Of a stretch of 19,638 nucleotides of DNA, positions 1-19,365 are shown one piece after another. The notes under the pieces were generated by a model, which was given only the letters and a program-made list of their open reading frames with translations, ran no database searches and was not told where the DNA came from. Source of the DNA: a virus (Duplodnaviria > Heunggongvirae > Uroviricota > Caudoviricetes); IMG/VR virus record IMGVR_UViG_2695420718_000005, positions 1-19,638 of that record; one strand, written 5' to 3'. The position numbers and the translations under genes were made by a program. Each line of letters begins with the position of its first letter. The first letter of the stretch is position 1.

Positions 1-89
1 CGATCTGTTGCCCTGGAAAGTTGATCTGAGCTCTCAGTAAATATCAATACGGTTCTGACGAGTCGCTTACAAACAAAAGGCTGGTTAAC

Positions 90-311
90 ATGAAAAAAAT
101 GGCAATTGTCGATAAAAAGGGTCTGGAGTACATTCCTAATATCGATCGTATGATCCGTGAGAAAGAATGTCGGGAGCTAACCACTCTTGCGAACAGCACA
201 CGCTGGAAGCTGGAGAAGGAAGGAAAATTTCCTAAGCGGATCAAGATTGGTTCCACTGCTGTTGCATATCGTCTTTCAGAAGTGCAGGCATGGATTAGGG
301 GAGAGTGGTAA
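90..311 (+). CDS. alpA: AlpA-family (prophage CP4-57-type) HTH transcriptional regulator
   Basis: 73-aa ORF; the stretch RELTTLANSTRWKLEKEGKFPKRIKIGSTAVAYRLSEVQAWI fits the AlpA/Phage_AlpA HTH pattern with a conserved Trp near the C-terminus; AAGG about 10 nt upstream of the ATG. An integrase would be expected upstream, outside the window. Confidence 0.8.
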   Translation: MKKMAIVDKKGLEYIPNIDRMIREKECRELTTLANSTRWKLEKEGKFPKRIKIGSTAVAYRLSEVQAWIRGEW

Positions 312-330
312 GAATTTAGACAGTGGATGT

Positions 331-357
331 AATCCTATGGGGTAAACCCATAGGATT
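331..357. terminator. Perfect 11-bp inverted repeat (aatcctatggg / cccataggatt, 5-nt loop) between convergent genes; possible bidirectional terminator
   Basis: Read directly: lies between the alpA stop (311) and the stop of the minus-strand 449-aa gene (363). No clear U-tract on either side, so intrinsic termination is uncertain. Confidence 0.35.
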
Positions 358-362
358 TGAAA

Positions 363-1712: not shown

Positions 1713-1735
1713 AGAAGAATCCTTTATGCAAATTA

Positions 1736-1930
1736 TCAGCCTTTAGGTGTTATTCCTTGTTTTATTAGTTCGGCACGAGCCAGTTCTTTTAGCCAGTTAC
1801 CTAAGCTCATCCCTTCTTTGGCAGCGACATTAACCATTTGTTCTTTTAATTCTGGGTTAATACGGACTTGGAATGCTGGTGCTTTACCTGCACCTTTCGG
1901 TTGTTTATCACGTTGAATGATAGTTGACAT
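1736..1930 (-). CDS. Arc/MetJ-type ribbon-helix-helix DNA-binding protein (64 aa)
   Basis: PAFQVRINPELKEQMVNVAAKEGMSLGNWLKELARAEL resembles the Arc-repressor layout (N-terminal beta-strand then two helices); first gene of a two-gene minus-strand operon. Confidence 0.55.
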   Translation of the reverse strand: MSTIIQRDKQPKGAGKAPAFQVRINPELKEQMVNVAAKEGMSLGNWLKELARAELIKQGITPKG

Positions 1931-1952
1931 GTGTGTACCTATTGCTTAGTAT
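1924..1952 (+). promoter_or_regulatory. Candidate sigma70 promoter (TTGACA, 17-nt spacer, TAGTAT) reading rightward into the small-gene/primase operon
   Basis: ttgaca at 1924-1929, 17-nt spacer, tagtat at 1947-1952; overlaps the inverted repeat at 1931-1972. Confidence 0.4.
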
Positions 1953-1972
1953 GATTCTTGATAGGTACACAC
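1931..1972. promoter_or_regulatory. Perfect 12-bp inverted repeat (gtgtgtacctat ... ataggtacacac, 18-bp spacer); candidate operator
   Basis: Read directly; sits immediately 5' of the RHH gene start codon (minus strand) and overlaps the candidate rightward promoter, i.e. in the divergent control region. Confidence 0.45.
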
Positions 1973-2069
1973 CTTATCATGTTTTATTGCTATATAACAA
2001 CGCCCTGCAGTGCTCGCAACACATACAGGGCGTCTAACCACCAACGATAGCAACAGTATCGAGGTAGCT

Positions 2070-2273
2070 ATGAGAAATCATACCACACACCCGCAAGGGC
2101 GGGATTCGCACAACCTGAATAAATACATCTGGCGTTTTATCGCCCTGAGCACCGCACAACCACGCGTAATACACATCGAGGCCGCCAGCGAACAGGAAGC
2201 CCGCCAGCAATCCCCAACTGGCTACGTGATGATATTCGCCGCCCGTATTCGTCAGGAGGTGTGCCGTGCTTAA
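2070..2273 (+). CDS. Hypothetical small protein (67 aa from the internal ATG)
   Basis: ATG at 2070 preceded by GAGG; the longer ORF from 2010 lacks an RBS. Same strand and operon as the downstream coupled genes. Confidence 0.35.
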   Translation: MRNHTTHPQGRDSHNLNKYIWRFIALSTAQPRVIHIEAASEQEARQQSPTGYVMIFAARIRQEVCRA

Positions 2274-2451
2274 AACCTTCCGTGTATTTGCCCGAGCTGT
2301 TAACCCACTGGGCCACACAATTGGTATCACTCAGAACGTGAAGGCTGTTAATGTTCAGACGGCTATTGCTGCGGTGAGAAGCGAATCATCAGAATATGGC
2401 TTATCACAAGTCATTATTTCAGCAGTGTATGAATTAAAAGAGGTGCATTAA
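2266..2451 (+). CDS. Hypothetical small protein (61 aa)
   Basis: GTG start 6 nt after a strong AGGAGG RBS (2254-2259); stop overlaps the next start (ATGA at 2451). Confidence 0.45.
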   Translation: MLKTFRVFARAVNPLGHTIGITQNVKAVNVQTAIAAVRSESSEYGLSQVIISAVYELKEVH

Positions 2452-2642
2452 TGCAGGAAATCACATTACACGAAGCCGCTGAACGTGCGCACCAGACAGA
2501 AATTATTTGCCGCCTTCTTGAGGTATACCCGAACAAAATTACAGATGCTGATATATCCGCGCTGGCGAGCCTACTGGCGCGCCTTTCGGGAAGTGTCGCT
2601 AGTTTCCTGATTGAGGAAGAAAGTAAGCTGGTGGGGGATTAA
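2451..2642 (+). CDS. Hypothetical small protein (63 aa)
   Basis: Start overlaps the upstream stop; stop overlaps the next start; translationally coupled operon. Confidence 0.45.
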   Translation: MQEITLHEAAERAHQTEIICRLLEVYPNKITDADISALASLLARLSGSVASFLIEEESKLVGD

Positions 2643-2864
2643 ATGAATACAGAACGGGAAGTCTTTTTTAAATTGTTAGCATGTGCAGAAAGTTCATTAA
2701 CTTTAAATAATTCAGCAAAAGCAATATTAAATATGTGGCTTGATTGCATAAATGACAATGAAGATGCAAATATTGCTTATGGCCTGTTGTCACTTATTGA
2801 TGAATCAGCAGAAAAACTCAATGACGCAATAAATAGTGCCCTGCTATCAAATAAGTCGAGTTAA
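2643..2864 (+). CDS. Hypothetical small protein (73 aa), AT-rich
   Basis: ORF in the same coupled series. Confidence 0.4.
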   Translation: MNTEREVFFKLLACAESSLTLNNSAKAILNMWLDCINDNEDANIAYGLLSLIDESAEKLNDAINSALLSNKSS

Positions 2865-2881
2865 GTCGAGGAATAAATAAT

Positions 2882-3181
2882 ATGGAAATGAAAAATTCTG
2901 GCTTTATTGCCAGCGGCCCCGCTCGGCCTGAATTTATGAACGGCGATATTTACCGCGATAAATACGGCGGCACGGTAACGATTAAAGGCGTGGCAGAACG
3001 GCGCATCACTTACCGCCGTGAGGGGTATAGCTATGACTGCGTGATGCCTGTTTATCAGTTCCGGCGTGATTTTTCCCTGGTATATGCCGCACCCCGCAGT
3101 AAGCCCATCAGCAGGGAAAAAGCGCGGGGAAACATCCAGAAAATGAAAAGCATGATTAACGCATTCAGGGGCAAAAAATGA
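2882..3181 (+). CDS. Hypothetical protein (99 aa); stop overlaps the primase start
   Basis: ATG at 2882 preceded by gaggaataaataat; the stop overlaps the ATG of the 583-aa gene (ATGA at 3178-3181). Confidence 0.5.
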   Translation: MEMKNSGFIASGPARPEFMNGDIYRDKYGGTVTIKGVAERRITYRREGYSYDCVMPVYQFRRDFSLVYAAPRSKPISREKARGNIQKMKSMINAFRGKK

Positions 3182-4929
3182 AACTGGCACCGAACTTAAA
3201 AAAACAGCCACGCGACAGACTGACAGAGGTAATCATCTTTGCAGGTAGTGATGCGTGGAGCCATGCGAAAGAGTGGCGGGAATGGGCGGGTAAACATATT
3301 GCCGCCGACGATGTGCCGCCTGTCGTGCTGGCTGATGAGCAACTGAAAAATATCACCGATTACCGGATCATTGATGAAGATCGTCAGTGTGTGCGTGTTT
3401 ACCGCGCAGGACATATCACAGAGCACAGCATGACGCAGATTGTTACGTTACTGGCTGTGGCTGGAGTGAAGACCGTACACGAATACGCGGGGATTACTGA
3501 CACCAGCCCAGTGGATTTATCCGAGCAGTTGCCGCGACTCAAAGAGGAATGCGAGCGTGGGGAAAGTCTGGTGCTTAATCTTCCGACGAAGCAAAAGGCG
3601 CAACTTTCACAGATGGCAGACAGTGAACGTGCACAACTACTTGCCGATCGCTTTGATGGTGTGTGTGTTCATGCAGAAAGTGAAATCGTCCACGTATGGC
3701 GCGGCGGGGTATGGTGTCCGGTCAGCACAATGGAGCTGAGCCGCGAAATGGTGGCGATCTATTCAGAGCACAGGGCCACGTTCAGCAAACGTGTAATCAA
3801 TAACGCCGTGGAAGCGTTAAAAGTTATTGCCGACCCCATGGGGGAGCCGTCCGGTGATTTGCTACCGTTCACTAATGGTGTGCTTAACCTGAAAACGGGG
3901 GAATTTTCTCCGCACTCGCCGGAGCACTGGAGCACCACGCACAATGGCATTGAGTACACGCCACCAGTAGCAGGGGAAAACATCCGCGATAATGCGCCAA
4001 ATTTCCATAAATGGCTTGAACATGCTGCAAGAAAAGACCCGCGTAAGATGATGCGTATATGTGCCGCGTTATACATGATTATGGCGAACCGCTACGACTG
4101 GCAGATGTTCATTGAGGCCACCGGAGACGGGGGAAGCGGTAAGAGTACATTTACCCATATTGCCACCCTGCTTGCTGGCAAACAGAACACCGTAAGCGCG
4201 GAGATGACATCACTCGATGATGCAGGAGGGCGCGCGCAGGTTGTCGGGAGTCGTCTTATCGTCCTTGCCGATCAGCCGAAATATACGGGGGAAGGCACGG
4301 GCATCAAGAAAATCACGGGAGGCGATCCCGTTGAAATTAACCCGAAATATGAGAAGCGATTCACGACGATAATAAGGGCGGTGGTACTGGCAACCAATAA
4401 CGACCCGATGATCTTTACCGAACGGGCCGGAGGTGTGTCACGCCGTCGGGTGATTTTCCGGTTCGACAACATTGTAAGGGAGGACGAAAAAGACAAGGAA
4501 TTACCGGAAAAGATAGCGGCAGAAATCCCCGTAATTATCCGCCGCTTGCTGGCTAATTTTGCTGCCCCTGAAAAGGCACGGGCTTTATTACTGGAACAGC
4601 GTGACGGTGATGAAGCTCTGGCAATAAAGCAGCAAACGGATCCGGTTGTTGAGCTTTGCGCGGCGCTGGAGTTTCTGGAGGAAGCTCGTGGGCTAATGAT
4701 GGGCGGTGGTGGTGACACCGTGAAGTACACGACCAGAAACAGCCTTTACCGTGTCTATATGGCCTTCATGGCATACACAGGAAAGGGGAAATGTTTGAGC
4801 GTGAATGAGTTCGGAAAGGCTATGAGGTCAGCGGCGAAAGTTTACGGATATGAATATATTACGCGAAAAGTTAAGGGAGTCACGCAGACCAACGCAACGA
4901 CTACTGATGATTGCGATGCGTTTTTATAA
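3178..4929 (+). CDS. P4-family phage/plasmid primase C-terminal domain / D5-N-like SF3 helicase replication protein (583 aa)
   Basis: Walker A motif GDGGSGKST in the context typical of P4 alpha / PICI Pri-Rep C-terminal helicase domains; immediately followed by an iteron array. Confidence 0.85.
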   Translation: MKLAPNLKKQPRDRLTEVIIFAGSDAWSHAKEWREWAGKHIAADDVPPVVLADEQLKNITDYRIIDEDRQCVRVYRAGHITEHSMTQIVTLLAVAGVKTVHEYAGITDTSPVDLSEQLPRLKEECERGESLVLNLPTKQKAQLSQMADSERAQLLADRFDGVCVHAESEIVHVWRGGVWCPVSTMELSREMVAIYSEHRATFSKRVINNAVEALKVIADPMGEPSGDLLPFTNGVLNLKTGEFSPHSPEHWSTTHNGIEYTPPVAGENIRDNAPNFHKWLEHAARKDPRKMMRICAALYMIMANRYDWQMFIEATGDGGSGKSTFTHIATLLAGKQNTVSAEMTSLDDAGGRAQVVGSRLIVLADQPKYTGEGTGIKKITGGDPVEINPKYEKRFTTIIRAVVLATNNDPMIFTERAGGVSRRRVIFRFDNIVREDEKDKELPEKIAAEIPVIIRRLLANFAAPEKARALLLEQRDGDEALAIKQQTDPVVELCAALEFLEEARGLMMGGGGDTVKYTTRNSLYRVYMAFMAYTGKGKCLSVNEFGKAMRSAAKVYGYEYITRKVKGVTQTNATTTDDCDAFL

Positions 4930-4942
4930 AAAATGGCAATGG

Positions 4943-5171
4943 TTATCTACCTTGTCTACCTGACTGAAAGAAAATACTTTTATTTCAATGTATTAATGCA
5001 GGTAGATAACTATTTTTCACTGTCTACCTGTTATCTACCTTATCTACCCATTTTTGTAGACAGGTAAGGAGACGGGTAGAGATGAGGTAGACAGCTATTT
5101 GGGGCTGTCTACCTCCCTGAAACCCGCGCCATTACTGGCCTGATAACTAATCAGGTAGACAAGGTAGACAA
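4943..5171. repeat. Iteron array (about 11 copies of GGTAGAYA / TRTCTACC in both orientations) with AT-rich flanks; candidate replication origin
   Basis: Read directly: ttatctacc-ttgtctacc (4943-4960), ggtagataa (5001-5009), tgtctacc / ttatctacc / ttatctacc (5021-5048), gtagacagg (5056-5064), ggtagaca (5087-5094), tgtctacc (5106-5113), ggtagacaa-ggtagacaa (5154-5171); AT-rich stretch at 4967-4998. Confidence 0.75.
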
Positions 5172-5218
5172 GGTGGTGGTGCACAAAAAACTTTTTAAAC
5201 GAGGGGGTAAAAATAAAA

Positions 5219-5476
5219 ATGCACACATCAGGAAAACTGAACAAACATATAAAGCCACATTACCGCGCCCTTGATATGGCTGAACACTGGCTAAGGGTGG
5301 CGATTAAGGCAATAGACCGCAACGCCGGGGAAGGATACGCGAAAGCACATCCCGAACTGATAAGCGCATTCATGACAACGGCGGCTGCAAACTTTGCCAC
5401 GCTGACCGAACGGGAGATTGCTGAAGCGGAGGAAGTGACAACAATCAATATTAAGTCCGGAGAGCAGGCAGCATGA
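5219..5476 (+). CDS. Hypothetical protein (85 aa)
   Basis: ORF directly downstream of the iterons; its stop overlaps the ssb start (ATGA at 5473). Confidence 0.5.
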   Translation: MHTSGKLNKHIKPHYRALDMAEHWLRVAIKAIDRNAGEGYAKAHPELISAFMTTAAANFATLTEREIAEAEEVTTINIKSGEQAA

Positions 5477-5922
5477 CGGCGCAAATATCAGTTTACGGGC
5501 GGTTGGTGGACGACCCGCAGACAAAACAGACCAGCAAGGGCACCCCCATGACGCTGGCGCGTATGGCGGTATCACTGCCCTGCAGTCAGTCGGATGACGG
5601 TCTGGCGACGTTGTGGTTATCTGTCCTGGCGTTTGGCAGACAAGCCGACGCGCTGGCAAAGCATCACAAAGGCGAACTCCTGAGCGTGGCGGGTAACATG
5701 CAGATGAGCCAGTGGACTGGACAGAACGGCGAAACGCGGCAGGGCTGGCAGGTTATCGCAGACAGCGTAATCAGTGCGCGATCGGTGCGACCGGGCGGCA
5801 AAAAAGGCCAACAGGGGCAGGCTACTGACGCACTGAACAGAGCAAAACAACAGGCAGATCAGCAAGGAAGCCAGCCACCAGAGGGAGATAATGAGCAATG
5901 GGGAGATGATATCCCGTTTTAA
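5473..5922 (+). CDS. ssb: Single-stranded DNA-binding protein (149 aa)
   Basis: N-terminal OB-fold-like region, Gln/Gly-rich linker and the diagnostic acidic C-terminal tail ending DDIPF (E. coli SSB ends DDDIPF). Confidence 0.85.
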   Translation: MTAQISVYGRLVDDPQTKQTSKGTPMTLARMAVSLPCSQSDDGLATLWLSVLAFGRQADALAKHHKGELLSVAGNMQMSQWTGQNGETRQGWQVIADSVISARSVRPGGKKGQQGQATDALNRAKQQADQQGSQPPEGDNEQWGDDIPF

Positions 5923-5940
5923 ATATTGCCAATAAAAAAA

Positions 5941-5964
5941 GCCGGAAAAAATAAATTTTCCGGC
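5941..5964. other. Palindrome gccggaaaa-aataaa-ttttccggc between ssb and the capsid-like gene
   Basis: Perfect 9-bp arms read directly; could be a terminator-like structure or a protein-binding site. Confidence 0.3.
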
Positions 5965-6138
5965 ATGCTACATAAATCCCGACCAAAGGGAGTGAAGATA
6001 TTAACACTAATTGTCCGCACTGAAGTTGTCACCCCAAAACTTTATACAACATTGCACTCGGTTGCATGTGTTCGCATGACAAATATCGGTGATAGCATAT
6101 ATCCACAATTATTTTTAATGAATGCAAAGAGGATGCGT

Positions 6139-7179
6139 ATGGTTGATTTATATTCGCCTACCCAGCTTGTACAGGTGGTTAATGCTGTAGATGTACAAAA
6201 ACAACTAAATGCGTTGTTTACCAGTTTGTTTTTTACTCGCTCGGTAATGTTTGGATCGCGCGATATTATTCTTGATACAATCGACGATCCAAATATCCCA
6301 ATTGCAGCGTTTTGTTCTCCTATGGTGGGTAGTAAAGTTTCACGTGACGAAGGGTACGAATCAAAAACAATTCGTCCAGGCTATATGAAGCCGAAAAGCA
6401 GCATTGATCCAAATAAGTTAGCTGTGCGCCCTGCTGGTGTATCACCTGAGCAATACAATGCTTTTGGGGCGCGTAATATTAAAGTTAAACAGGCGATTGT
6501 AAATCAAGCTAAAGCTATTCGTGCACGTATTGAATGGCTTGCCGTTCAGGCAATCACAACGGGGAAAAATATCATTGAGGGCGATGGTATTGAACGTTAT
6601 GAGCTGGACTGGAATATTAAACCACAAAATATCATCACTCAGTCTGGCGGTACTGAGTGGTCAGGTAAGGATAAAGAAACTTTTGATCCAAATGATGATA
6701 TTGAGAGCTACGCAGAATTTAGTGAGGGCGTCACTAATATCATCATTATGGGCGGTAATGTATGGAAGAAATACCGTTCATTCAGAGCGATAAAAGAGGC
6801 TCTGGATACCCGTCGTGGTTCTAATTCCGAACTGGAAACGGCCCTTAAAGACCTTGGTGATTCGGTGAGTTTTAAAGGATATATGGGCGATGTTGCGATT
6901 GTTGTTTACAGCGGGCGTTATACCGACGAGGACGGAACTGAAAAACATTTCCTTGATCCTGATTTGATGGTGCTTGGCAATACGGCTCTTCAGGGGATTG
7001 TCGCCTATGGCGGTATTCAGGATCCGGAGCTAATCCGAATGGGGCTGACTAAAGCCGAACTTGCACCGAAAAACTATATTGTGCCTGGTGATCCGGCTAT
7101 TGAATATGTGCAGACACATTCAGCACCACAGCCAATACCGGCCCGCATCAATCGTTTTGTTACCGTTCGCATTGGCTAA
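6139..7179 (+). CDS. Major capsid protein, diverged homologue of lambda gpE (347 aa from the RBS-preceded ATG)
   Basis: Segments PGYMKPK, ITQSGGTEWSGKDKETFDPNDDIESYA and LDTRRGSNSELETALKDLGDSVSFKGYMGDVAIVVYSG align with remembered lambda E; AAAGAGGA RBS before the ATG at 6139. The longer ORF from 5926 has no homology in its extension. Confidence 0.8.
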   Translation: MVDLYSPTQLVQVVNAVDVQKQLNALFTSLFFTRSVMFGSRDIILDTIDDPNIPIAAFCSPMVGSKVSRDEGYESKTIRPGYMKPKSSIDPNKLAVRPAGVSPEQYNAFGARNIKVKQAIVNQAKAIRARIEWLAVQAITTGKNIIEGDGIERYELDWNIKPQNIITQSGGTEWSGKDKETFDPNDDIESYAEFSEGVTNIIIMGGNVWKKYRSFRAIKEALDTRRGSNSELETALKDLGDSVSFKGYMGDVAIVVYSGRYTDEDGTEKHFLDPDLMVLGNTALQGIVAYGGIQDPELIRMGLTKAELAPKNYIVPGDPAIEYVQTHSAPQPIPARINRFVTVRIG

Positions 7180-7188
7180 GGGGGAGCA

Positions 7189-7530
7189 ATGGCTACTCAT
7201 TACACTGAACTCATGGCTGGCACTGAAGCACTGGTGACTACGCTGGGGATATTTTCAGCTAATAAAGGGGTAATTCCTGCATTTACGCCACTGATGCAGG
7301 AAGATGCAACAGGTGCACTGGTGGTATGGGATGGTTCGAGCGTAGGTAAAGCGGTTTATGTTTCCGCTGTACAAATCGACACCGCGAAAAAAACACAGGC
7401 TCAGGTCTATAAGACAGGTGTCTTAAATGTTGATGCTCTGAACTGGCCTGAGTCTGTAAAAGAACTGTCAGTAAAGATTGCAGCGTTTGTTGGCTCAGGT
7501 ATTTCTGTTCAGCCGCTGGCTCGTGTGTAA
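7189..7530 (+). CDS. Head decoration protein, lambda gpD-like (113 aa)
   Basis: PAFTPLMQEDATGALVVWDG, YKTGVLNVDALNWPE and AAFVGSGISV align with remembered lambda D (TPLMLDTSSRKLVAWDG, YKSGTFRYEDVLWPE, TAFAGTAISI); GGGGGAG RBS. Confidence 0.75.
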   Translation: MATHYTELMAGTEALVTTLGIFSANKGVIPAFTPLMQEDATGALVVWDGSSVGKAVYVSAVQIDTAKKTQAQVYKTGVLNVDALNWPESVKELSVKIAAFVGSGISVQPLARV

Positions 7531-7541
7531 AGGGGGATACA

Positions 7542-7925
7542 ATGCAAAATGATTACAATGACCTTAAGCCAATTGCCGAAATGATGTACCCGAATCCAGC
7601 TGTAGAGGAATTAAAAGCTATCGCTGACAAAATGTGTTTAAGCGAGCGCCTTGTTGATATGAATCAGGTGATGGAAATTACAACCCTGAGTCGGCGTACA
7701 CTGCTAAACCTTGAGGCTAGTGGAGAGTTCCCGGAGCGTGTGCAGGTTACGGAAGGGCGTAAGGCCTGGTATTTAAGTGAAGTGATCGACTGGATAAATA
7801 ATATTCCTCGCGCTTCTGAATATTGCCGCGTACCTGTCCCAAAAAAGCCAGATGCGGCGCTATGCCTCAAGATTGAGCGTGTACGCCGCAATGCACGGGA
7901 TGGTCGCTATAAGCTGATTGGTTGA
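7542..7925 (+). CDS. AlpA-like HTH DNA-binding protein with N-terminal extension (127 aa)
   Basis: MEITTLSRRTLLNLEASGEFPERVQV...WYLSEVIDWI fits the AlpA-type HTH pattern; AGGGGGA RBS; located immediately upstream of the cos site. Confidence 0.6.
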   Translation: MQNDYNDLKPIAEMMYPNPAVEELKAIADKMCLSERLVDMNQVMEITTLSRRTLLNLEASGEFPERVQVTEGRKAWYLSEVIDWINNIPRASEYCRVPVPKKPDAALCLKIERVRRNARDGRYKLIG

Positions 7926-7933
7926 TGAAATTA

Positions 7934-7962
7934 GGGCCCGCTCTGGCTGGCGGGTCCTTTCC
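7934..7962 (+). terminator. Candidate intrinsic terminator (gggcccgc-tctggctg-gcgggtcc followed by tttcc)
   Basis: GC-rich imperfect hairpin followed by a short T-run, just after the 127-aa gene stop. Confidence 0.4.
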
Positions 7963-7981
7963 GGCGATCTGACAGGCTACG

Positions 7982-7993
7982 GGGCGTCAGGCG
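7982..7993. other. cosN-equivalent (gggcgtcaggcg), divergent from lambda cosN GGGCGGCGACCT
   Basis: Position and flanks (acg before, cgcgg-attttcgc after) correspond to the lambda cohesive-end region as I recall it; 5 of 12 positions differ. Confidence 0.55.
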
Positions 7994-7998
7994 CGCGG

Positions 7999-8170
7999 AT
8001 TTTCGCTATTTATGAAAATTTTCCGGTTTAAGGCGTTTCCGTTCTTCTTCGTCGTAACTTAATGTTTTTATTTAAAATACCCCCTGAAAAGAAAGGAAAC
8101 GACAGGTGCTGAAAGCGAGCTTTTTGGCCTCTGTCGTTTCCTTTCTCTGTTTTTGTCCGTGGAATGAACA
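7999..8170 (+). promoter_or_regulatory. Lambda-type cosB with Nu1-binding repeats R3, R2, R1 (CGTTTCC / GGAAACG)
   Basis: attttcgctatttatgaaaattttccggtttaaggcgtttccgttcttcttcg ... aaaggaaacgacaggtg ... ctgtcgtttcctttctc matches my recollection of the lambda left end nearly base for base; three CGTTTCC-type repeats read directly. Confidence 0.75.
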
Positions 8171-8722
8171 ATGGAAGTCAACAAAAAGCAGCTGGCTGAC
8201 ATTTTCGGTGCGAGTATCCGTACCATTCAGAACTGGCAGGAACAGGGAATGCCCGTTCTGCGAGGCGGTGGCAAGGGTAATGAGGTGCTTTATGACTCTG
8301 CCGCCGTTATAAGATGGTATGCCGAAAGGGATGCTGAAATTGAGAACGAAAAGCTGCGCCGGGAAGTTGAAGAACTGCGGCAGGCCAGCGAGACAGATCT
8401 CCAGCCAGGGACTATTGAGTACGAACGCCATCGACTTACGCGTGCGCAGGCCGACGCACAGGAACTGAAGAATGCCAGCGAAACAGGTGAGGTAATTGAC
8501 ACTGCATTTGCGACTTATGCCTTGTCGAAATTAACTGGGGAAGTTGGAGCAATCATTGATAGTCTTCCACTTGCGATCTGTCGACAGTTTCCTGGCATGG
8601 AAAAACGGTATCAGGACTTCATTAAGATGGAGGTCAGTAAAGCATTTATTCGAGCTTACCAGATCTCAGATAACATTCCAGATATGGCTGAAAGGTATAT
8701 CAAGGATAATCAGCGAAGTTAA
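8171..8722 (+). CDS. Nu1: Terminase small subunit Nu1 (183 aa); N-terminal DNA-binding half lambda-like, C-terminal half diverged
   Basis: MEVNKKQLADIFGASIRTIQNWQEQGMPVLRGGGKGNEVLYDSAAV... is essentially lambda Nu1; the C-terminal ~70 aa are homologous but diverged. No gpA gene follows. Confidence 0.9.
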   Translation: MEVNKKQLADIFGASIRTIQNWQEQGMPVLRGGGKGNEVLYDSAAVIRWYAERDAEIENEKLRREVEELRQASETDLQPGTIEYERHRLTRAQADAQELKNASETGEVIDTAFATYALSKLTGEVGAIIDSLPLAICRQFPGMEKRYQDFIKMEVSKAFIRAYQISDNIPDMAERYIKDNQRS

Positions 8723-8778
8723 AACAAATGAAACCATAGGTAGGAAGAGTGCTTAGGTGGTTCTTTGTTGCTTAAAAG

Positions 8779-8810
8779 TCGCCAGTAAAACTGGCGATAG
8801 ATTTTATTTG
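8779..8810. terminator. Hairpin tcgccag-taaaa-ctggcga followed by tagattttatttg; candidate bidirectional terminator between Nu1 and the convergent 301-aa gene
   Basis: Perfect 7-bp stem and T-rich tract read directly; lies between convergent gene ends. Confidence 0.45.
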
Positions 8811-8828
8811 TCAAAAGCATTTGACCTT

Positions 8829-9734
8829 TTAAGGTAGTGGTACTATGGATATTTTTCTGTCGTTCCCAAATGAACTTTTAAATAATTTCGCTCTTGGATA
8901 CATTTTAACTAGTGATGCGACTTCATCGAACTCGCTGGCATCAAAAAGAGGACCAAGTATTACAGATTTTAACTCAAAAGGGTGAAATTTTAAGTCGCTA
9001 TATTGACCAGTGCTATTTGGCCTAGCGTAGGTTGAAATTCTCCACTCTCTTTCATATGCCCATTCTTCTGTTTTTATGAATATTATCTCATTATTGATAT
9101 ATTCAATTGACTTATTGTCTGGCATGAAAAGCAACTCGGCCATCCCTTCAGCAGTGTGAGTTAGAGGCATTTCATCTGTGTATTTCATAGGTTTGGCTAT
9201 TAACCAAGCGCTATCCAGAAAGTCTACACAATCAAATTCGATAACTATACCTTTATATTTATCGGCATAGTGATTCCACATAGGAGTGATTATAGGGCTC
9301 TCAGATAAACACAAAATCCTTCTGTTATTAAGCATTCCTCGCCAGACATCTTTCATTTCTTGTATTGCCGCAGGAGCGCCAATCCCAACTGGTGGAATGT
9401 TTACCATTTCTTGAAATCTTTCAATTAATCCTGCGGGTATGCCTAAAGGAAATGACTTTTGGAAATCACTTAGCATTGTTCTAATTCTAGGGTTTAAATT
9501 TTGTATGTCTTCTCTGGGGGTAATCAACTCCGCTATTAACTTGCGGGCTAAAGCTTTGCCAATATTAATTTCGTTAATACCAGGCATAACTTCTCTTGGA
9601 ACATCAAAAGGGTCATTAAATAGGACCGGAGAACTCCATCTAAGGCTGCATGAATCAAGAACAATCTTCGCGGTATTCAACGACATATACTTATAAAATG
9701 TTGAGCGTTCATGCATTCTGTTGGGTGAGCGCAT
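8829..9734 (-). CDS. Hypothetical 301-aa protein, AT-rich moron; motif pattern reminiscent of the DUF2971 family (unverified recollection)
   Basis: Long minus-strand ORF, strongly AT-rich relative to the flanking lambda genes; motifs FYKYMSL, FNDPFD, RILCLSESPIITPMWNHYADKYKGIVIEFD. It occupies the position where lambda A through Nu3, D and E-5' would be. Confidence 0.7.
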   Translation of the reverse strand: MRSPNRMHERSTFYKYMSLNTAKIVLDSCSLRWSSPVLFNDPFDVPREVMPGINEINIGKALARKLIAELITPREDIQNLNPRIRTMLSDFQKSFPLGIPAGLIERFQEMVNIPPVGIGAPAAIQEMKDVWRGMLNNRRILCLSESPIITPMWNHYADKYKGIVIEFDCVDFLDSAWLIAKPMKYTDEMPLTHTAEGMAELLFMPDNKSIEYINNEIIFIKTEEWAYEREWRISTYARPNSTGQYSDLKFHPFELKSVILGPLFDASEFDEVASLVKMYPRAKLFKSSFGNDRKISIVPLP

Positions 9735-9870
9735 AGATTCCTCTTGTTAAATGAGTGATGGTTTTCATCCATGTATTGCACGTTGTATTGCATTCAAGGA
9801 TTTTCCATTTCAATTCTATAGCTAAAACGTAATCAAATCATTCACATCCTTTCATATTTGACTCATGTAG

Positions 9871-10659
9871 CCGAAGCATGAGGTGAATCCGCAGATGACC
9901 CTGCGTCGCCTGCCGGATGAAGATCCGCAGAATCTGGCGGACCCGGCTTACCGCCGCCGTCGCATCATCATGCAGAACATGCGAGACGAAGAGCTGGCCA
10001 TTGCTCAGGTCGAAGAGATGCAGGCAGTTTCTGCTGTGCTTAAGGGCAAATACACCATGACCGGTGAAGCCTTCGATCCGGTTGAGGTGGATATGGGCCG
10101 CAGTGCGGCGAACAACATCACACAGTCCGGTGGTACGGAGTGGAGCAAGCGTGACAAGTCCACGTATGACCCGACCGACGATATCGAAGCCTATGCGCTG
10201 AACGCCAGCGGAGTGGTGAATATCATCGTGTTTGATCCGAAAGGCTGGGCGCTGTTCCGTTCCTTCAAAGCCGTCAAGGAGAAGCTGGATACCCGTCGCG
10301 GCTCTAATTCCGAGCTGGAGACAGCGGTAAAAGACCTGGGCGAAGCGGTGTCCTATAAGGGGATGTATGGCGATACGGCGATCGTCGTGTATTCCGGACA
10401 GTACGTGGAAAACGACGTCAAAAAGAACTTCCTTCCGGACAACACGATGGTGCTGGGGAACTCTCAGGCACGCGGTCTGCGCACCTATGGCTGCATTCAG
10501 GATGCGGACGCACAGCGCGAAGGTATTAACGCCTCTGCCCGCTACCCGAAAAACTGGGTGACCACCGGCGATCCGGCGCGTGAGTTCACCATGATTCAGT
10601 CAGCACCGCTGATGCTGCTGGCTGACCCTGATGCGTTCGTGTCCGTACAACTGGCGTAA
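9871..10659 (+). pseudogene. E: 5'-truncated major capsid gene E (lambda gpE residues ~90 to end)
   Basis: Translation PKHEVNPQMTLRRLPDEDPQNLADPAYRRRRIIMQNMRDEEL... matches lambda E almost residue for residue; homology stops abruptly near 9866-9870, where an in-frame TAG (9868-9870) is present; no proper N-terminus or RBS. Confidence 0.8.
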
Positions 10660-10700
10660 TCATGGCCCTTCGGGGCCATTTTCTCTCTGTGGAGGAGTCT

Positions 10701-11096
10701 ATGACGAAAGATGAACTGATTGCCCGTCTTCAGGTGCTGGGTGAGCAACTGAACCGTGATGTCAGCCTGACGGGGACGAAAGAAGAACTGGTGCTCCGTG
10801 TGGCAGAGCTGGAAGAGGAGCTTGATGACACGGATGACGCTGCCGGTCAGGACACATCTGTCAGCCCGGAAAATGCGCTGACCGGACATGAAAATGAGGT
10901 TGTATCAGCGCAGCCGGATACCGTGACTGATACGGCTGATCTGGTCACGGTTGTGGCACTGGTGACGCTGCATACTGATGCACTTCACGCCACGCGGGAT
11001 GAGGCTGTGGCATTTGTGCTGCCGGGAACGGCGTTCCGTGTCTCTGCCGGTGTGTCAGCTGAAATGACAGAGCGCGGCCTGGCCAGAATGCAATAA
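10701..11096 (+). CDS. FI: DNA-packaging protein FI (132 aa)
   Basis: MTKDELIARL...ERGLARMQ matches lambda FI; GGAGGA RBS before the ATG at 10701. The ORF-track start at 10662 is an upstream extension. Confidence 0.9.
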   Translation: MTKDELIARLQVLGEQLNRDVSLTGTKEELVLRVAELEEELDDTDDAAGQDTSVSPENALTGHENEVVSAQPDTVTDTADLVTVVALVTLHTDALHATRDEAVAFVLPGTAFRVSAGVSAEMTERGLARMQ

Positions 11097-11107
11097 CGGG
11101 AGGCGCT

Positions 11108-11461
11108 GTGGCTGATTTCGATAACCTGTTCGATGCTGCCATTGCCCGCGCCGATGAAACGATACGCGGGTACATGGGAACGTCAGCCACCATGACATCC
11201 GGTGAGCAGTCCGGTGCTGTGATACGTGGTGTTTTTGATGACCCTGAAAATATCAGCTATGCCGGACAGGGCGTGCGCGTTGAAGGCTCCAGCCCGTCCC
11301 TGTTTGTCCGGACTGATGATGTGCGGCAGCTGCGGCGCGGCGACACGCTGACCATCGGTGAGGAAAACTTCTGGATAGACCGGATTTCGCCGGATGATGG
11401 CGGAAGCTGTCATCTCTGGCTTGGGCGGGGCGTACCGCCTGCCGTTAACCGTCGCCGCTGA
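11108..11461 (+). CDS. FII: Head-tail joining protein FII (117 aa)
   Basis: MADFDNLFDAAIARADETIRGYMGTSAT... matches lambda FII; GTG start after GGGAGG. Confidence 0.9.
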   Translation: MADFDNLFDAAIARADETIRGYMGTSATMTSGEQSGAVIRGVFDDPENISYAGQGVRVEGSSPSLFVRTDDVRQLRRGDTLTIGEENFWIDRISPDDGGSCHLWLGRGVPPAVNRRR

Positions 11462-11472
11462 AAGGGGGATGT

Positions 11473-12051
11473 ATGGCCATAAAAGGTCTTGAGCAGGCCG
11501 TTGAAAACCTCAGTCGTATCAGCAGAGCGGCGGTGCCCGGTGCCGCCGCAATGGCCATTAACCGCGTTGCTTCATCCGCGATATCGCAGTCGGCGTCACA
11601 GGTTGCCCGTGAGACAAAGGTACGCCGGAAACTGGTAAAGGAAAGGGCCAGGCTGAAAAGGGCCACGGTCAAAAATCCGCAGGCCAGAATCAAGGTTAAC
11701 CGGGGGGATTTGCCCGTAATAAAGCTGGGTAACGCGCGGATTGTCCTGTCCCGACGCAGGCGTCGTAAAAAGGGGCAGCGTTCAGCCCTGAAAGGTGGCG
11801 GCAGCGTGCTTGTGGTGGGAAACCGTCGTATTCCCGGCGCGTTTATTCAGCAACTGAAACATGGCCGCTGGCATGTCATGCAGCGTGTGGCCGGGAAAAA
11901 CCGTTACCCCATTGATGTGGTGAAAATCCCGATGGCGGTGCCGCTGACCACGGCGTTTAAACAGAATATTGAGCGGATACGGCGTGAGCGTCTTCCGAAA
12001 GAGCTGGGCTATGCGCTGCAGCATCAACTGAGGATGGTAATAAAGCGATGA
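11473..12051 (+). CDS. Z: Tail terminator/completion protein Z (192 aa)
   Basis: MAIKGLEQAVENLSRIS... matches lambda Z; AAGGGGGA RBS. Confidence 0.9.
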   Translation: MAIKGLEQAVENLSRISRAAVPGAAAMAINRVASSAISQSASQVARETKVRRKLVKERARLKRATVKNPQARIKVNRGDLPVIKLGNARIVLSRRRRRKKGQRSALKGGGSVLVVGNRRIPGAFIQQLKHGRWHVMQRVAGKNRYPIDVVKIPMAVPLTTAFKQNIERIRRERLPKELGYALQHQLRMVIKR

Positions 12052-12443
12052 AACATACTGAACTCCGTGCAGCCGTACTGGATGCACTGGAGAAGCATGA
12101 CACCGGGGCGACGCTTTTTGATGGTCGCCCCGCTGTTTTTGATGAGGAAGATTTTCCGGCAATTGCCGTTTATCTCACCGGCGCTGAATACACGGGCGAA
12201 GAGCTGGACAGCGATACCTGGCAGGCGGAGCTGCATATTGAAGTTTTCCTGCCTGCTCAGGTGCCGGATTCAGAGCTGGATGCGTGGATGGAGTCCCGGA
12301 TTTATCCGGTGATGAGCGATATCCCGGCACTGTCAGATTTGATCACCAGTATGGTGGCCAGTGGCTATGACTACCGGCGCGACGATGATGCGGGCCTGTG
12401 GAGTTCAGCCGATCTGACTTATGTCATTACCTATGAAATGTGA
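12048..12443 (+). CDS. U: Tail tube terminator protein U (131 aa)
   Basis: [22 protein letters not shown]... matches lambda U; start overlaps the Z stop. Confidence 0.9.
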
Positions 12444-12450
12444 GGACGCT

Positions 12451-13191
12451 ATGCCTGTACCAAATCCTACAATGCCGGTGAAAGGTGCCGGGACCACCCT
12501 GTGGGTTTATAAGGGGAGCGGTGACCCTTATGCGAACCCGCTTTCAGACGTTGACTGGTCGCGTCTGGCAAAAGTTAAAGACCTGACGCCCGGCGAACTG
12601 ACCGCTGAGTCCTATGACGACAGCTATCTCGATGATAAAGATGCAGACTGGACTGCGACCGGGCAGGGGCAGAAATCTGCCGGAGATACCAGCTTCACGC
12701 TGGCGTGGATGCCCGGAGAGCAGGGGCAGCAGGCGCTGCTGGCGTGGTTTAATGAAGGTGATACCCGTGCCTATAAAATCCGCTTCCCGAACGGCACGGT
12801 CGATGTGTTCCGTGGCTGGGTCAGCAGTATCGGTAAGGCGGTGACGGCGAAGGAAGTGATTACCCGCACGGTGAAGGTCACCAATGTGGGACGTCCGTCG
12901 ATGGCAGAAGATCGCAGCACGGTAACAGCGGCAACCGGCATGACCGTGACGCCTGCCAGCACTTCGGTGGTGAAAGGGCAGAGCACCACGCTGACCGTGG
13001 CATTCCAGCCGGAAGGCGCAACCGACAAGAGCTTCCGTGCGGTGTCAGCGGATAAAACAAAAGCCACCGTGTCGGTCAGTGGTATGACCATCACCGTGAA
13101 TGGCGTTGCTGCAGGCAAGGTCAACATTCCGATTGTATCCGGTAATGGTGAGTTTGCTGCGGTTGCAGAAATCACCGTCACCGCCAGTTAA
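12451..13191 (+). CDS. V: Major tail tube protein V (246 aa)
   Basis: [22 protein letters not shown]... matches lambda V including the C-terminal Ig-like region; GAGGA RBS before the ATG at 12451. The ORF-track start at 12421 is rejected. Confidence 0.9.
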
Positions 13192-13206
13192 TCCGGAGAG
13201 TCAGAG

Positions 13207-13629
13207 ATGTTCCTGAAAACCGAATCATTTGAACATAACGGTGTGACCGTCACGCTTTCTGAACTGTCAGCCCTGCAGCGTATTGAGCATCTCGCCCTGA
13301 TGAAACGGCAGGCAGAACAGGCGGAGTCAGACAGCAACCGGAAGTTTACTGTGGAAGACGCCATCAGAACCGGCGCGTTTCTGGTGGCGATGTCCCTGTG
13401 GCATAACCATCCGCAGAAGACAAAGCAGCCTTCCATGAATGAAGCCGTTAAACAGATTGAGCAGGAAGTGCTTACCACCTGGCCCACAGAGGCAATTTCT
13501 CATGCTGAAAACGTGGTGTACCGGCTGTCTGGTATGTATGAGTTTGTGGTGAATAATGCCCCTGAACAGGCAGAGGACGCCGGGCCCGCAGAGCCTGTTT
13601 CTGCGGGAAAGTGTTCGACGGTGAGCTGA
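13207..13629 (+). CDS. G: Tail assembly chaperone G (140 aa)
   Basis: MFLKTESFEHNGVTVTLSELSALQRIEHL... matches lambda G. Confidence 0.9.
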   Translation: MFLKTESFEHNGVTVTLSELSALQRIEHLALMKRQAEQAESDSNRKFTVEDAIRTGAFLVAMSLWHNHPQKTKQPSMNEAVKQIEQEVLTTWPTEAISHAENVVYRLSGMYEFVVNNAPEQAEDAGPAEPVSAGKCSTVS

Positions 13630-14045
13630 GTTTTGCCCTGAAACTGGCGCGTGAGATGGGGCGACCCGACTGGCGTGCCATGCTTGCCGGGATGTCATCC
13701 ACGGAGTATGCCGACTGGCACCGCTTTTACAGTACCCATTATTTTCATGATGTTCTGCTGGATATGCACTTTTCCGGGCTGACGTACACCGTGCTCAGCC
13801 TGTTTTTCAGCGATCCGGATATGCATCCGCTGGATTTCAGTCTGCTGAACCGGCGCGAGGCTGACGAAGAGCCTGAAGATGATGTGCTGATGCAGAAAGC
13901 GGCAGGGCTTGCCGGAGGTGTCCGCTTTGGCCCGGACGGGAATGAAGTTATCCCCGCTTCCCCGGATGTGGCGGACATGACGGAGGATGACGTAATGCTG
14001 ATGACAGTATCAGAAGGGATCGCAGGAGGAGTCCGGTATGGCTGA
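13207..14045 (+). CDS. G-T: G-T tail assembly chaperone fusion produced by -1 frameshift (T portion 13611..14045)
   Basis: The -1 frame ORF after the slippery site encodes ...FDGELSFALKLAREMGRPDWRAMLAGMSSTEYADWHRFY..., matching the lambda T region; no independent RBS or start. Confidence 0.8.
13605..13611 (+). promoter_or_regulatory. Programmed -1 ribosomal frameshift slippery heptamer G GGA AAG (G to G-T)
   Basis: GGGAAAG read in the G frame near the 3' end of G; the -1 frame continues as the T ORF to 14045. Confidence 0.8.
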
Positions 14046-17000
14046 ACCTGTAGGCGATCTGGTCGTTGATTTGAGTCTGGATGCGGCCAGATTTGACGAG
14101 CAGATGGCCAGAGTCAGGCGTCATTTTTCCGGTACGGAAAGTGATGCGAAAAGAACAGCGGCAGTCGTTGAACAGTCGCTGAGCCGACAGGCGCTGGCTG
14201 CACAGAAAGCGGGGATTTCCGTCGGGCAGTATAAAGCCGCCATGCGTATGCTGCCTGCACAGTTCACCGACGTGGCCACGCAGCTTGCAGGCGGGCAAAG
14301 TCCGTGGCTGATCCTGCTGCAACAGGGGGGGCAGGTGAAGGACTCCTTCGGCGGGATGATCCCCATGTTCAGGGGGCTTGCCGGTGCGATCACCCTGCCG
14401 ATGGTGGGGGCCACCTCGCTGGCGGTGGCGACCGGTGCGCTGGCGTATGCCTGGTATCAGGGCAACTCAACCCTGTCCGATTTCAACAAAACGCTGGTCC
14501 TTTCCGGTCATCAGTCGGGTCTGACGGCAGATCGTATGCTGGTCCTGTCCAGAGCCGGGCAGGCGGCAGGGCTGACGTTTAACCAGACCAGCGAGTCACT
14601 CAGCGCACTGGTTAAGGCGGGGGTAAGCGGTGAGGCTCAGATTGCGTCCATCAGCCAGAGTGTGGCGCGTTTCTCCTCTGCATCCGGCGTGGAGGTGGAC
14701 AAGGTCGCTGAAGCCTTCGGGAAGCTGACCACAGACCCGACGTCGGGGCTGACGGCGATGGCACGCCAGTTCCATAACGTGACGGCGGAGCAGATTGCGT
14801 ATGTTGCTCAGTTGCAGCGTTCCGGCGATGAAGCCGGGGCATTGCAGGCGGCGAACGAGGCCGCAACGAAAGGGTTTGATGACCAGACCCGCCGCCTGAA
14901 AGAGAACATGGGCACGCTGGAGACCTGGGCAGACAGGACTGCGCGGGCATTCAAATCCATGTGGGATGCGGTGCTGGATATTGGTCGTCCTGATACCGCG
15001 CAGGAGATGCTGATTAAGGCAGAGGCTGCGTTTAAGAAAGCAGACGACATCTGGAATCTGCGCAAGGATGATTATTTTGTTAACGATGAAGCGCGGGCGC
15101 GTTACTGGGATGATCGTGAAAAGGCCCGTCTTGCGCTTGAAGCCGCCCGAAAGAAGGCTGAGCAGCAGACTCAACAGGACAAAAATGCGCAGCAGCAGAG
15201 CGATACCGAAGCGTCACGGCTGAAATATACCGAAGAGGCGCAGAAGGCTTACGAACGGCTGCAGACACCGCTGGAGAAATATACCGCCCGTCAGGAAGAA
15301 CTGAACAAGGCACTGAAAGACGGGAAAATCCTGCAGGCAGATTACAACACGCTGATGGCGGCGGCGAAAAAGGATTATGAAGCGACGCTGAAAAAGCCGA
15401 AACAGTCCGGCGTGAAAGTGTCTGCGGGCGATCGTCAGGAAGACAGTGCTCATGCTGCCCTGCTGACGCTTCAGGCAGAACTCCGGACGCTGGAGAAGCA
15501 TGCCGGAGCAAATGAGAAAATCAGCCAGCAGCGCCGGGATTTGTGGAAGGCGGAGAGTCAGTTCGCGGTACTGGAGGAGGCGGCGCAACGTCGCCAGCTG
15601 TCTGCACAGGAGAAATCCCTGCTGGCGCATAAAGATGAGACGCTGGAGTACAAACGCCAGCTGGCTGCACTTGGCGACAAGGTTACGTATCAGGAGCGCC
15701 TGAACGCGCTGGCGCAGCAGGCGGATAAATTCGCACAGCAGCAACGGGCAAAACGGGCCGCCATTGATGCGAAAAGCCGGGGGCTGACTGACCGGCAGGC
15801 AGAACGGGAAGCCACGGAACAGCGCCTGAAGGAACAGTATGGCGATAATCCGCTGGCGCTGAATAACATCATGTCAGAGCAGAAAAAGACCTGGGCGGCT
15901 GAAGACCAGCTTCGCGGGAACTGGATGGCAGGCCTGAAGTCCGGCTGGAGTGAGTGGGAAGAGAGCGCCACGGACAGTATGTCGCAGGTAAAAAGTGCAG
16001 CCACGCAGACCTTTGATGGTATTGCACAGAATATGGCGGCGATGCTGACCGGCAGTGAGCAGAACTGGCGCAGCTTCACCCGTTCCGTGCTGTCCATGAT
16101 GACAGAAATTCTGCTTAAGCAGGCAATGGTGGGGATTGTCGGGAGTATCGGCAGCGCCATTGGCGGGGCTGTTGGTGGCGGCGCATCCGCGTCAGGCGGT
16201 ACAGCCATTCAGGCCGCTGCGGCGAAATTCCATTTTGCAACCGGAGGATTTACGGGAACCGGCGGCAAATATGAGCCAGCGGGGATTGTTCACCGTGGTG
16301 AGTTTGTCTTCACGAAGGAGGCAACCAGCCGGATTGGCGTGGGGAATCTTTACCGGCTGATGCGCGGCTATGCCACCGGCGGTTATGTCGGTACACCGGG
16401 CAGCATGGCAGACAGCCGGTCGCAGGCGTCCGGGACGTTTGAGCAGAATAACCATGTGGTGATTAACAAAGGACTGATGGCGATGGCGCGCCAGTTCCGT
16501 AACGTGACGGCAGAGCAGATTGCGTATGTTGCACAGCTGCAGCGTTCCGGAGACGAGGCCGGGGCATTGCAGGCGGCGAACGATATCGCCACGAAAGGCT
16601 TTGATGAGCAGACCCGTCGCCTGAAAGAAAACATGGGAACACTGGAGACCTGGGCGGATAAAACAGGGAAGGCATTCAAATCGATGTGGGATGCCATTCT
16701 GGATATCGGTCGTCCTGAATCCTCAGCGGATATGCTCGCCAGTGCGCAGAAGGCATTTGATGAGGCGGATAAAAAATGGCAGTGGTACCAGAGCCGGAGC
16801 CAGCGCCGGGGAAAGACCTCCTCTTTTCGTGCGAACCTTCAGGGGGCATGGGATGACAGGGAAAATGCCCGTCTGGGTCTGGCAGCGGCCACGCTGCAGT
16901 CGGATATGGAAAAAGCCGGTGAACTGGCGGCAAGGGACCGGGCTGAGCGTGAGGCGTCACAGCTGAAGTATACCGGAGAGGCGCAGAAGGCGTATGAGCG

Positions 17001-18336: not shown

Positions 18337-18662
18337 AAACCTTCCGCTGGAAAGTGAAACCCGGTATGGATGTGGCTTCGGCCCCTTCTGTAAGAAAGGT
18401 GCGCTTTGGTGATGGTTATTTCCAGCGAGCGCCTGCCGGGCTGAATGCCAACCTGAAAACGTACAGCGTGACGCTTTCTGTCCCCCGTGAGGAGGCCACG
18501 GTACTGGAGTCGTTTCTGGCTGAGCACGGGGGCTGGAAAGCCTTTCTGTGGACGCCGCCTTATGAGTGGCGGCAGATAAAGGTGACCTGCGCAAAATGGT
18601 CGTCGCGGGTCAGTATGCTGCGTGTTGAGTTCAGCGCAGAGTTTGAACAGGTGGTTAACTGA
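18333..18662 (+). CDS. M: Minor tail protein M (109 aa)
   Basis: MKTFRWKVKPGMDVAS... matches lambda M; start overlaps the end of H. Confidence 0.9.
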   Translation: MKTFRWKVKPGMDVASAPSVRKVRFGDGYFQRAPAGLNANLKTYSVTLSVPREEATVLESFLAEHGGWKAFLWTPPYEWRQIKVTCAKWSSRVSMLRVEFSAEFEQVVN

Positions 18663-19360: not shown

Positions 19361-19365
19361 ATCCC

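Follow-up and report, generated by a model that had tools for sequence, protein, structure and literature searches.

The cos site carried by the analysed stretch of 19,638 nucleotides (the window) is very probably a working site of a helper-embedded PICI, cut by the ordinary terminase of its helper and bearing a natural cosN allele that departs from lambda at tolerated positions. The left arm of the window, up to the attR core, is a PICI of about 11 kb that belongs to the published 11capE class and interrupts gene E of a lambda-like prophage. As a site, the window cos falls within kinds already known; what is added here is a re-interpretation of the locus and a consistent mismatch between the ends of satellite and helper.

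The satellite and its host prophage

The whole window was compared by megablast with complete Escherichia coli genomes, 47 of which cover at least 80% of it. In the sister loci, according to their RefSeq annotation, an insertion of about 11.1 kb interrupts gene E of a lambdoid prophage, leaving 246 bp of the gene on its 5' side and 789 bp on its 3' side; the order within the insertion is integrase, HTH, variable zone, DUF4222, primase, SSB, E-family capsid, D-family decoration, AlpA-like gene, cos, terS and DUF2971. At either end of the element stands a 10-bp repeat, AGCCGAAGCA, whose copies lie about 11.1 kb apart in L001, L002, L220, L221 and L223. Gene E of the sister loci is divided cleanly at this att core, no sequence being lost, and attL is present in six of them. 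In sister genomes the annotation treats the E 3' fragment as a capsid pseudogene that has lost its N-terminus, and the integrase lies just left of the window start, judged from the sister loci. The layout of attR and E 3' fragment thus places the start of the window just past the satellite integrase, so that it holds most of the satellite and, after it, helper genes E' to L. The features are listed in Table 1.

Table 1. Features of the window (positions 1 to 19,638).
Feature	Position	Strand	Remarks
Predicted defence gene, PD-T7-1	363-1712	-	449 aa
Primase D5_N/DUF5906	3178-4929	+	PICI replication module; Pfam
SSB	5473-5922	+	PICI replication module; Pfam
PICI major capsid protein, lambda-E family	6139-7179	+	PF03864; start as in sister annotation (L001/L002 RefSeq)
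PICI decoration protein, lambda-D family	7189-7530	+	PF02924; L001/L002 RefSeq annotation
AlpA-like helix-turn-helix gene	7542-7925	+	PF05930; directly upstream of cos; HTH regulator in sister loci
Lambda homology left of cosN	7950-7981		28/32 identical; cosQ inside
cosQ, GGGTCCT	7952-7958	+	exact motif, lambda spacing: 23 nt upstream of top-strand nick position
CG pairs flanking cosN	7980-7981 and 7994-7995		both conserved
cosN, GGGCGTCAGGCG	7982-7993	+	occupies lambda cosN position; predicted 12-nt 5' overhang
cosB, lambda type	7994-8170	+	174/177 identical to lambda
R3	8030-8045		exact lambda 16-mer
R3-R2 interval	8046-8089		carries I1/IHF site in lambda
R2 (inverted)	8090-8105		exact lambda 16-mer
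R1	8131-8146		exact lambda 16-mer
PICI terS, Nu1 family	8171-8722	+	183 aa; Pfam PF07471, E=3.6e-84; Phage_Nu1 positions 1-162 of 164
DUF2971 gene between terS and attR	8829-9734	-	Pfam PF11185; PADLOC PDC-S31, E=2.5e-32
attR core, AGCCGAAGCA	9869-9878	+	PICI right end; attL outside window
Helper gene E 3' fragment	9871-10659	+	Pfam PF03864, profile positions 94-328 only
Helper genes FI through L	10662-19360		downstream of E 3' fragment
Helper tape-measure gene	14038-18336	+	1432 aa; duplicated copies at ~14746-15891 and ~16471-17628

The insertion in the helper capsid gene at a short identity block and its co-orientation with the late genes are those of 11capE elements, and the gene order is that of a PICI: primase, SSB, Phage_cap_E, HDPD, AlpA and Nu1 were recognized by Pfam in the window, and the integrase is known from the sister loci. 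The satellite has no TerL, and neither a portal nor other head-assembly genes follow its cos. Tommasini, Mageeney & Williams (2023) reported 201 instances of 11capE in gene E, with a 10-bp identity block and a cos-like region of 258 bp that is 90% identical to that of the helper; cosN was not discussed (PMC10111431). Excision and replication of 11capE were shown in NRG857c, and virions were undetected from the composite prophage (PMC10111431). Eco567.11capE has in common with the window element its length of about 11 kb, insertion in gene E at the 10-bp core, co-orientation with the helper late genes, and the succession of int, HTH, primase, own capsid gene and a cos near the right end. It was described without terS, whereas the window element has a mosaic terS of Nu1 type and, in its variable zone, a gene for PD-T7-1.

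The ORF assigned to PD-T7-1 had no Pfam or NCBIfam match, and its PADLOC match is near full length (E=1e-153); it is predicted to be an anti-phage defence gene of the satellite variable zone. Sister satellites carry at this position DUF2971, an IS3 element or other ORFs, and the position looks like a putative defence hotspot. PDC-S31, which the DUF2971 protein between terS and attR matches, is a candidate defence family; in several sister elements another DUF2971 gene lies close to int. In the helper part of the window the tape-measure protein is longer than in sister prophages (853-866 aa). The additional length comes from a diverged tandem duplication within the gene, about 1737 bp (579 aa) long and with copies 71-90% identical; it was seen with a generic repeat finder only, Tandem Repeats Finder returning nothing. 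If the protein is functional, the longer tape-measure would give a much longer tail.

Architecture of the cos site and distribution of cosN alleles

The window was aligned with lambda NC_001416 (loci L144 and L145). The cosN of the window, GGGCGTCAGGCG, is identical to the lambda sequence, GGGCGGCGACCT, at 7 of 12 positions, the changes from lambda to window being G>T at bp 6, G>A at bp 8, A>G at bp 9, C>G at bp 10 and T>G at bp 12. An earlier note on this DNA, made from the sequence alone, had put the difference at about five positions; it is exactly five, and the lambda cosN given there is correct. Within the left half, bp 1-5 (GGGCG) are kept and bp 6 is T, not G; the other four changes fall in the right half. 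The Nu1-binding repeats, described in the same note as almost base-identical to lambda, are exact; over cosQ, the spacing, the three R sites and the opening 308 bp of Nu1, agreement with lambda is 97-100%. Counted from cosN bp 1, R3, R2 and R1 start at bp 49, 109 and 150; the spacing of R3 and R2 is that of lambda, and R1 is 1 bp nearer because of a 1-bp deletion that is common to natural helper prophages. The R2/R1 inverted repeat was also recovered independently.

Shared with lambda are therefore cosQ with its 23-nt spacing, cosN bp 1-5, 7 and 11, the flanking CG pairs, R3/R2/R1 and the placing of the Nu1 start codon some 190 bp from the nick position. The window differs in cosN bp 6, 8, 9, 10 and 12, in the genes after cos (no TerL, portal or head genes) and in the terS C-terminus (about 40%). 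With cosQ 23 nt upstream, a conserved left half with flanking CG and an R3-R2-R1 cosB, the window cos is by sequence a lambda-type site, at which staggered 12-nt nicking is predicted. A single cos was found, no second cos-like site being present in the window (EcCICFT073 has a cos2). In the metagenome scan described below, none of the 40 matches was on a contig beginning at the cohesive end, which would be a physical sign of cutting.

DNA homology to lambda, which had been supposed to start exactly at cos, begins not at the nick position but 32 bp to the left of cosN, at cosQ. The view that everything further left is non-lambda holds for the DNA, which is unrelated beyond 7950, and fails for the proteins, since the DNA left of cosQ codes for lambda-family E and D capsid proteins recognized by Pfam. 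On the other side, high identity to lambda breaks off at 8478 inside the Nu1-like gene, with 303/308 identical positions before this point and 133/244 after it.

The frequency of the allele was determined by an IMG/VR scan anchored only on PICI-specific sequence left of cosQ, which yielded 94 usable cos sites. The window allele is the most frequent (53/94, 56%), followed by canonical GGGCGGCGACCT (35/94), GGGCGGAAGGCG (4/94), and GGGCGGCAGACG and GGGCGGCTGACG (1/94 each). A generic scan for lambda-type cos sites gave at least 120 loci. Among the 120 matches listed, 106 were GGGCGGCGACCT, eight GGGCGGAAGGCG, four GGGCGGCAGCGG, one GGGCGGCGACCG and one a spurious match; the window allele was found in none of these 120. 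A scan specific for GGGCGTCAGGCG gave 15 PICI-flanked and four phage-flanked copies, and a metagenome scan gave 40 matches, roughly half of which were fortuitous and came from soil contigs; the true cos matches, about 21, were PICI-flanked in 19 cases and phage-flanked in two. From these flank counts, GGGCGTCAGGCG is mainly, not exclusively, a satellite allele.

The true cos matches of GGGCGTCAGGCG that were found all come from E. coli genomes, IMG/VR contigs or metagenome contigs, and the PICI-type cos region was matched in about 408 of 5,426 complete E. coli genomes. The allele was absent from the GTDB species-representative genomes, both in a scan with cosQ and spacing and in a right-flank scan. 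No exact copy was found in the phage-collection records, where the best matches carry GGGCGGAAGGCG, and searches of the searchable paper texts with the 12-mers and their reverse complements retrieved only unrelated papers.

At least four kinds of right flank are joined to GGGCGTCAGGCG, namely lambda cosB with or without terS, a phi80-like cosB and a non-lambda, rpp-type flank, the last in other members of the PICI family of the window. In seven IMG/VR loci (L026, L033, L068, L083, L100, L125 and L136), GGGCGGCAGCGG and GGGCGGAAGGCG occur with a non-lambda cosB like that of CFT073 phage 4. Alleles of cosN and types of cosB evidently reassort freely across lambdoid elements.

These distributions bear on the suggestion of the earlier note that cosN had decayed in a defective prophage, or that the GC-rich stretch contained a sequencing or assembly error. 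The helper of the window does lack an intact E while the PICI occupies this gene, one of the copies of the allele in a phage context lies in the degraded prophage L264, and the G1A change in the helper cosN of L219 is possibly real decay. Nevertheless, a non-functional or misread cosN is exceedingly improbable. The site lies inside a PICI, not where the cos of a dying prophage would be, and carries the majority allele of its PICI family, and the identical 12-mer recurs in several complete genomes and in assemblies made independently, which number dozens, although its invariance within an allele class is partly circular, copies having been grouped by that sequence. The alleles are discrete and shared rather than scattered point changes; the functionally critical neighbours (cosQ, bp 1-5, flanking CG and R sites) are all intact; and the clean division of E at the att core cost no sequence. 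The copy in L264 (9070-9081; NZ_CP122832, ETEC1730) lies in a heavily degraded prophage that also occurs in five other genomes, four of them porcine; this remnant contains many pseudogenes and a truncated Nu1 fused to a portal fragment.

Among 38 PICI cos haplotypes, the bases after cosQ, the TACG before the nick position and cosN bp 1-5 and 11 are invariant, and the spacer between cosQ and cosN and cosN bp 6-10 and 12 are variable, with T at bp 6 in 21 of the 38. According to Feiss et al., from genetics and natural variation, the left half of cosN, the flanking CG and cosQ were under selection and bp 7-12 were free; G2C was deleterious and the symmetric C11G harmless (PMC4669245). Natural differences at bp 7-12 are common, as at bp 9 and 12 in N15/phiD326 and bp 8, 9 and 11 in Gifsy-1, and lambda TerL gave an equal burst with cosN-lambda and cosN-N15 (PMC4669245). 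The constraint map of the PICI cosN, as read from these haplotypes, matches this functional asymmetry, bp 6 being the sole departure: G>T at this position falls in the half counted as selected by Feiss et al.

The exact window allele has not been described as a known functional lambdoid cosN, but in spirit it agrees with one, as it belongs to a natural series of changes in the half known to be tolerant. The N15 end, GGGCGGCGTCCG, also has G at bp 12 and is cut by lambda TerL, so that G at this position is already experimentally validated. Phi80, which had also been proposed for comparison, has the canonical cosN (PMC6092414). N15/phiD326 and Gifsy-1 have two or three changes, compared with five in the window, which include bp 6 and are linked mainly to satellites, not to a lineage of phages. 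The GGGCGGAAGGCG allele of PhiR46_1 (PV340565) and YDC107_1 (CP025712) also has five changes from lambda, including A8, G9, G10 and G12 as in the window, and adjoins a lambda-type cosB, Nu1 and A; it is present in PICIs too. Unlike the window allele it has G at bp 6 (not T) and A at bp 7 (not C), and it occurs mostly in phage and prophage contexts.

EcCICFT073 and other Rpp-type PICIs resemble the window element in having a satellite lambda-like cos with conserved cosQ and spacing, use of a helper TerL and a terS-like gene after the site (PMC6092414, PMC6739421, PMC9026076). In the Rpp-type islands cosB differs and Rpp re-targets TerS (PMC6739421, PMC9026076). EcCICFT073 lacks the lambda cosB and has rpp downstream, and its cos1 and cos2, like those of CFT073 phage 4 and phi80, have the canonical GGGCGGCGACCT (PMC6092414, supplementary Fig. 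S5). The window reverses this arrangement, with a variant cosN, a lambda-type cosB with exact R sites and a full-length gene of the Nu1 family. Its cos is thus not of the Rpp type, R3/R2/R1 being exact and the Phage_Nu1 gene near full length.

Terminase genes beside the variant cosN

The other reading offered in the earlier note was that the variant is recognized with altered specificity, that is, cut only by a modified terminase, whether the helper TerL re-targeted by the satellite TerS or a distinct helper TerL. The TerL sequences adjoining the different alleles were compared. Among the neighbours of the exact allele, TerL was found in one case, the prophage L016, in which GGGCGTCAGGCG precedes a complete Nu1-A-W-B-C-D-E module, i.e. 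an intact-head prophage; this TerL has four residue differences from lambda gpA apart from a GTG start codon. The other phage-context copies had no TerL within the fetched stretch or lay in the degraded prophage L264. Carriers of the GGGCGGAAGGCG allele include two deposited phages, PhiR46_1 and YDC107_1, as well as L265, a prophage whose head module is intact; the TerLs of PhiR46_1 and L265 are about 99% identical to lambda-type TerL. No publication on PhiR46_1 was found, its status as an isolated phage being taken solely from the GenBank record.

Whether they adjoin the canonical allele or one of GGGCGTCAGGCG, GGGCGGAAGGCG and GGGCGGCGACCG, lambda-type TerLs have about 99% identity to lambda gpA, those beside variant alleles being 4-5 residues away from it. 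In 40 TerLs of 641 aa, representing four alleles, none of the 21 variable columns tracked the allele; differences in TerL thus do not follow cosN, contrary to what a changed specificity would demand.

The satellite terS is a mosaic, in which codons 1-102 match helper Nu1 without a difference and codons 103-183 are PICI-specific, with about 40% identity to lambda Nu1 (BLASTP); the 3' half is identical to that of sister PICIs (244/244). In lambda Nu1 the first part is the winged-helix DNA-binding domain, and the rest comprises the oligomerisation and TerL-binding regions (PMC9026076). In phage records nothing closer than 40% was found for the C-terminal half, and its relatives in a protein search were limited to a small number of truncated entries from Klebsiella and E. 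coli. The window terS is intact, without a stop at codon 22. Such a nonsense codon is shared by 6 of 12 satellite terS genes (L002, L010, L149, L204, L219 and L220), whose downstream sequence is otherwise unchanged; either one lineage has spread recently or full-length TerS is dispensable.

Over 7994-8478, cosB and the 5' 308 bp of terS are closer to helpers and lambda than to the satellites L001, L002 and L220: in the window and L223, cosB and the 5' part of terS are nearer to helpers (172-174/177) than to sister PICIs (165/177). Satellite type is retained in the cosN of the window, in its left flank and in the 3' half of terS. This pattern suggests that the stretch from cosB to the 5' part of terS is a putative patch of helper-to-satellite recombination stopping short of cosN.

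Recognition with altered specificity finds some encouragement in the divergence of the 80 C-terminal residues of the PICI TerS (about 40% to Nu1), where lambda has its oligomerisation and TerL-binding regions, in the Klebsiella relatives of that half, and in the precedent of Rpp, by which PICIs re-target the terminase (PMC6739421). It is nonetheless very unlikely. The nuclease resides in TerL, yet none of its residues co-varies with the allele, the PICI encodes no TerL of its own, and the helper TerL stands beside a canonical cosN; in L016 the variant adjoins ordinary Nu1 and A. Many variant-cosN PICIs carry no terS, which together with the codon-22 truncations implies that cutting of the variant cosN cannot depend on the satellite TerS. 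The tolerance of lambda TerL to changes in bp 7-12 (PMC4669245) is a further argument against it.

Cleavage of the satellite cos by the ordinary helper terminase is proposed to proceed as follows. On induction of the helper, the PICI would be excised at AGCCGAAGCA and replicated into concatemers. IHF and a Nu1-type small subunit, either helper Nu1 or the PICI protein with its identical residues 1-102, would bind R3/R2/R1, and the bound subunit would position the helper TerL of gpA type to introduce staggered nicks 12 bp apart, leaving 5' overhangs of GGGCGTCAGGCG. Packaging would be terminated through cosQ and cosN at a downstream copy. As the bottom-strand nick would be set by the cosB-anchored terminase, and not by sequence, in the region of bp 6-10 and 12, no altered terminase would be needed.

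Ends of satellites and helpers

The earlier note had seen a possible relevance to the discrimination between satellite and helper in packaging, and the site does belong to a satellite. In the unexcised composites the helper cos lies about 15.5 kb upstream of the embedded PICI cos, in the same orientation. In all six composite prophages the PICI carries GGGCGTCAGGCG and the cosN of the resident helper is canonical or near-canonical. It is canonical in five of them (L002, L220, L221, L223 and the contig pair L088/L186), as it is in a further IMG/VR contig pair, L054/L195. In the sixth, L219 (433-444; NZ_CM136148), the helper cosN is AGGCGGCGACCT, with a change at bp 1 (G1A) of the conserved left half, and may represent genuine decay of the helper cos. 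The mismatch between satellite and helper ends, at 5 of 12 positions, appears to be unreported so far.

The mismatch could be adaptive, the PICI allele being kept because its overhang cannot anneal with that of the helper. Chromosomes running from the cos of one element to that of the other would then fail to cyclise, their ends being unable to anneal, which would separate satellite and helper genetically or penalize the packaging of unexcised composites. The agreement of all six composites points in this direction, as do the frequency of the allele in PICI cos sites (56%, against none among the 120 generic matches listed), its rarity beside phage-type flanks (only 2 of about 21 true metagenome cos matches) and the replacement by helper sequence that cosB and the 5' part of terS seem to have undergone while cosN stayed of PICI type. 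Moreover, a mismatch of only 2 bp between the ends already reduces viable yield about 4-fold (PMC4669245). On the other hand, 35 of the 94 PICIs of the same family have the canonical cosN, so that a mismatch is not required, bp 7-12 are reported to be free of selection, and linkage to the left flank specific to PICIs, together with common descent, can account for the enrichment. Selection for incompatible ends is therefore considered unlikely. The mismatch itself is documented in these composites, and any benefit from it would be hypothetical. A private sticky end that would act as a barrier of compatibility, or would penalize the helper while the satellite is unexcised, with the bp-6 change possibly weakening cutting as well, is accordingly doubtful; if real, it would place the discrimination between satellite and helper at cosN rather than at cosB.

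The preferred reading, cleavage of a natural allele by the ordinary helper terminase, has consequences for the study of these elements. For annotation, a lambda-like cos with odd ends near capsid-gene fragments can mark a nested satellite and not decay. The cosN alleles may be usable as orthogonal sticky ends in cosmids or PICI-based delivery vectors. If the end mismatch affects chimeric packaging, it would be an additional layer of discrimination beyond the mechanism based on Rpp and cosB. Finally, five changes within bp 6-12 beside a nearly unchanged lambda-type TerL support the view that a terminase anchored at cosB, and not the sequence, positions the bottom-strand nick.
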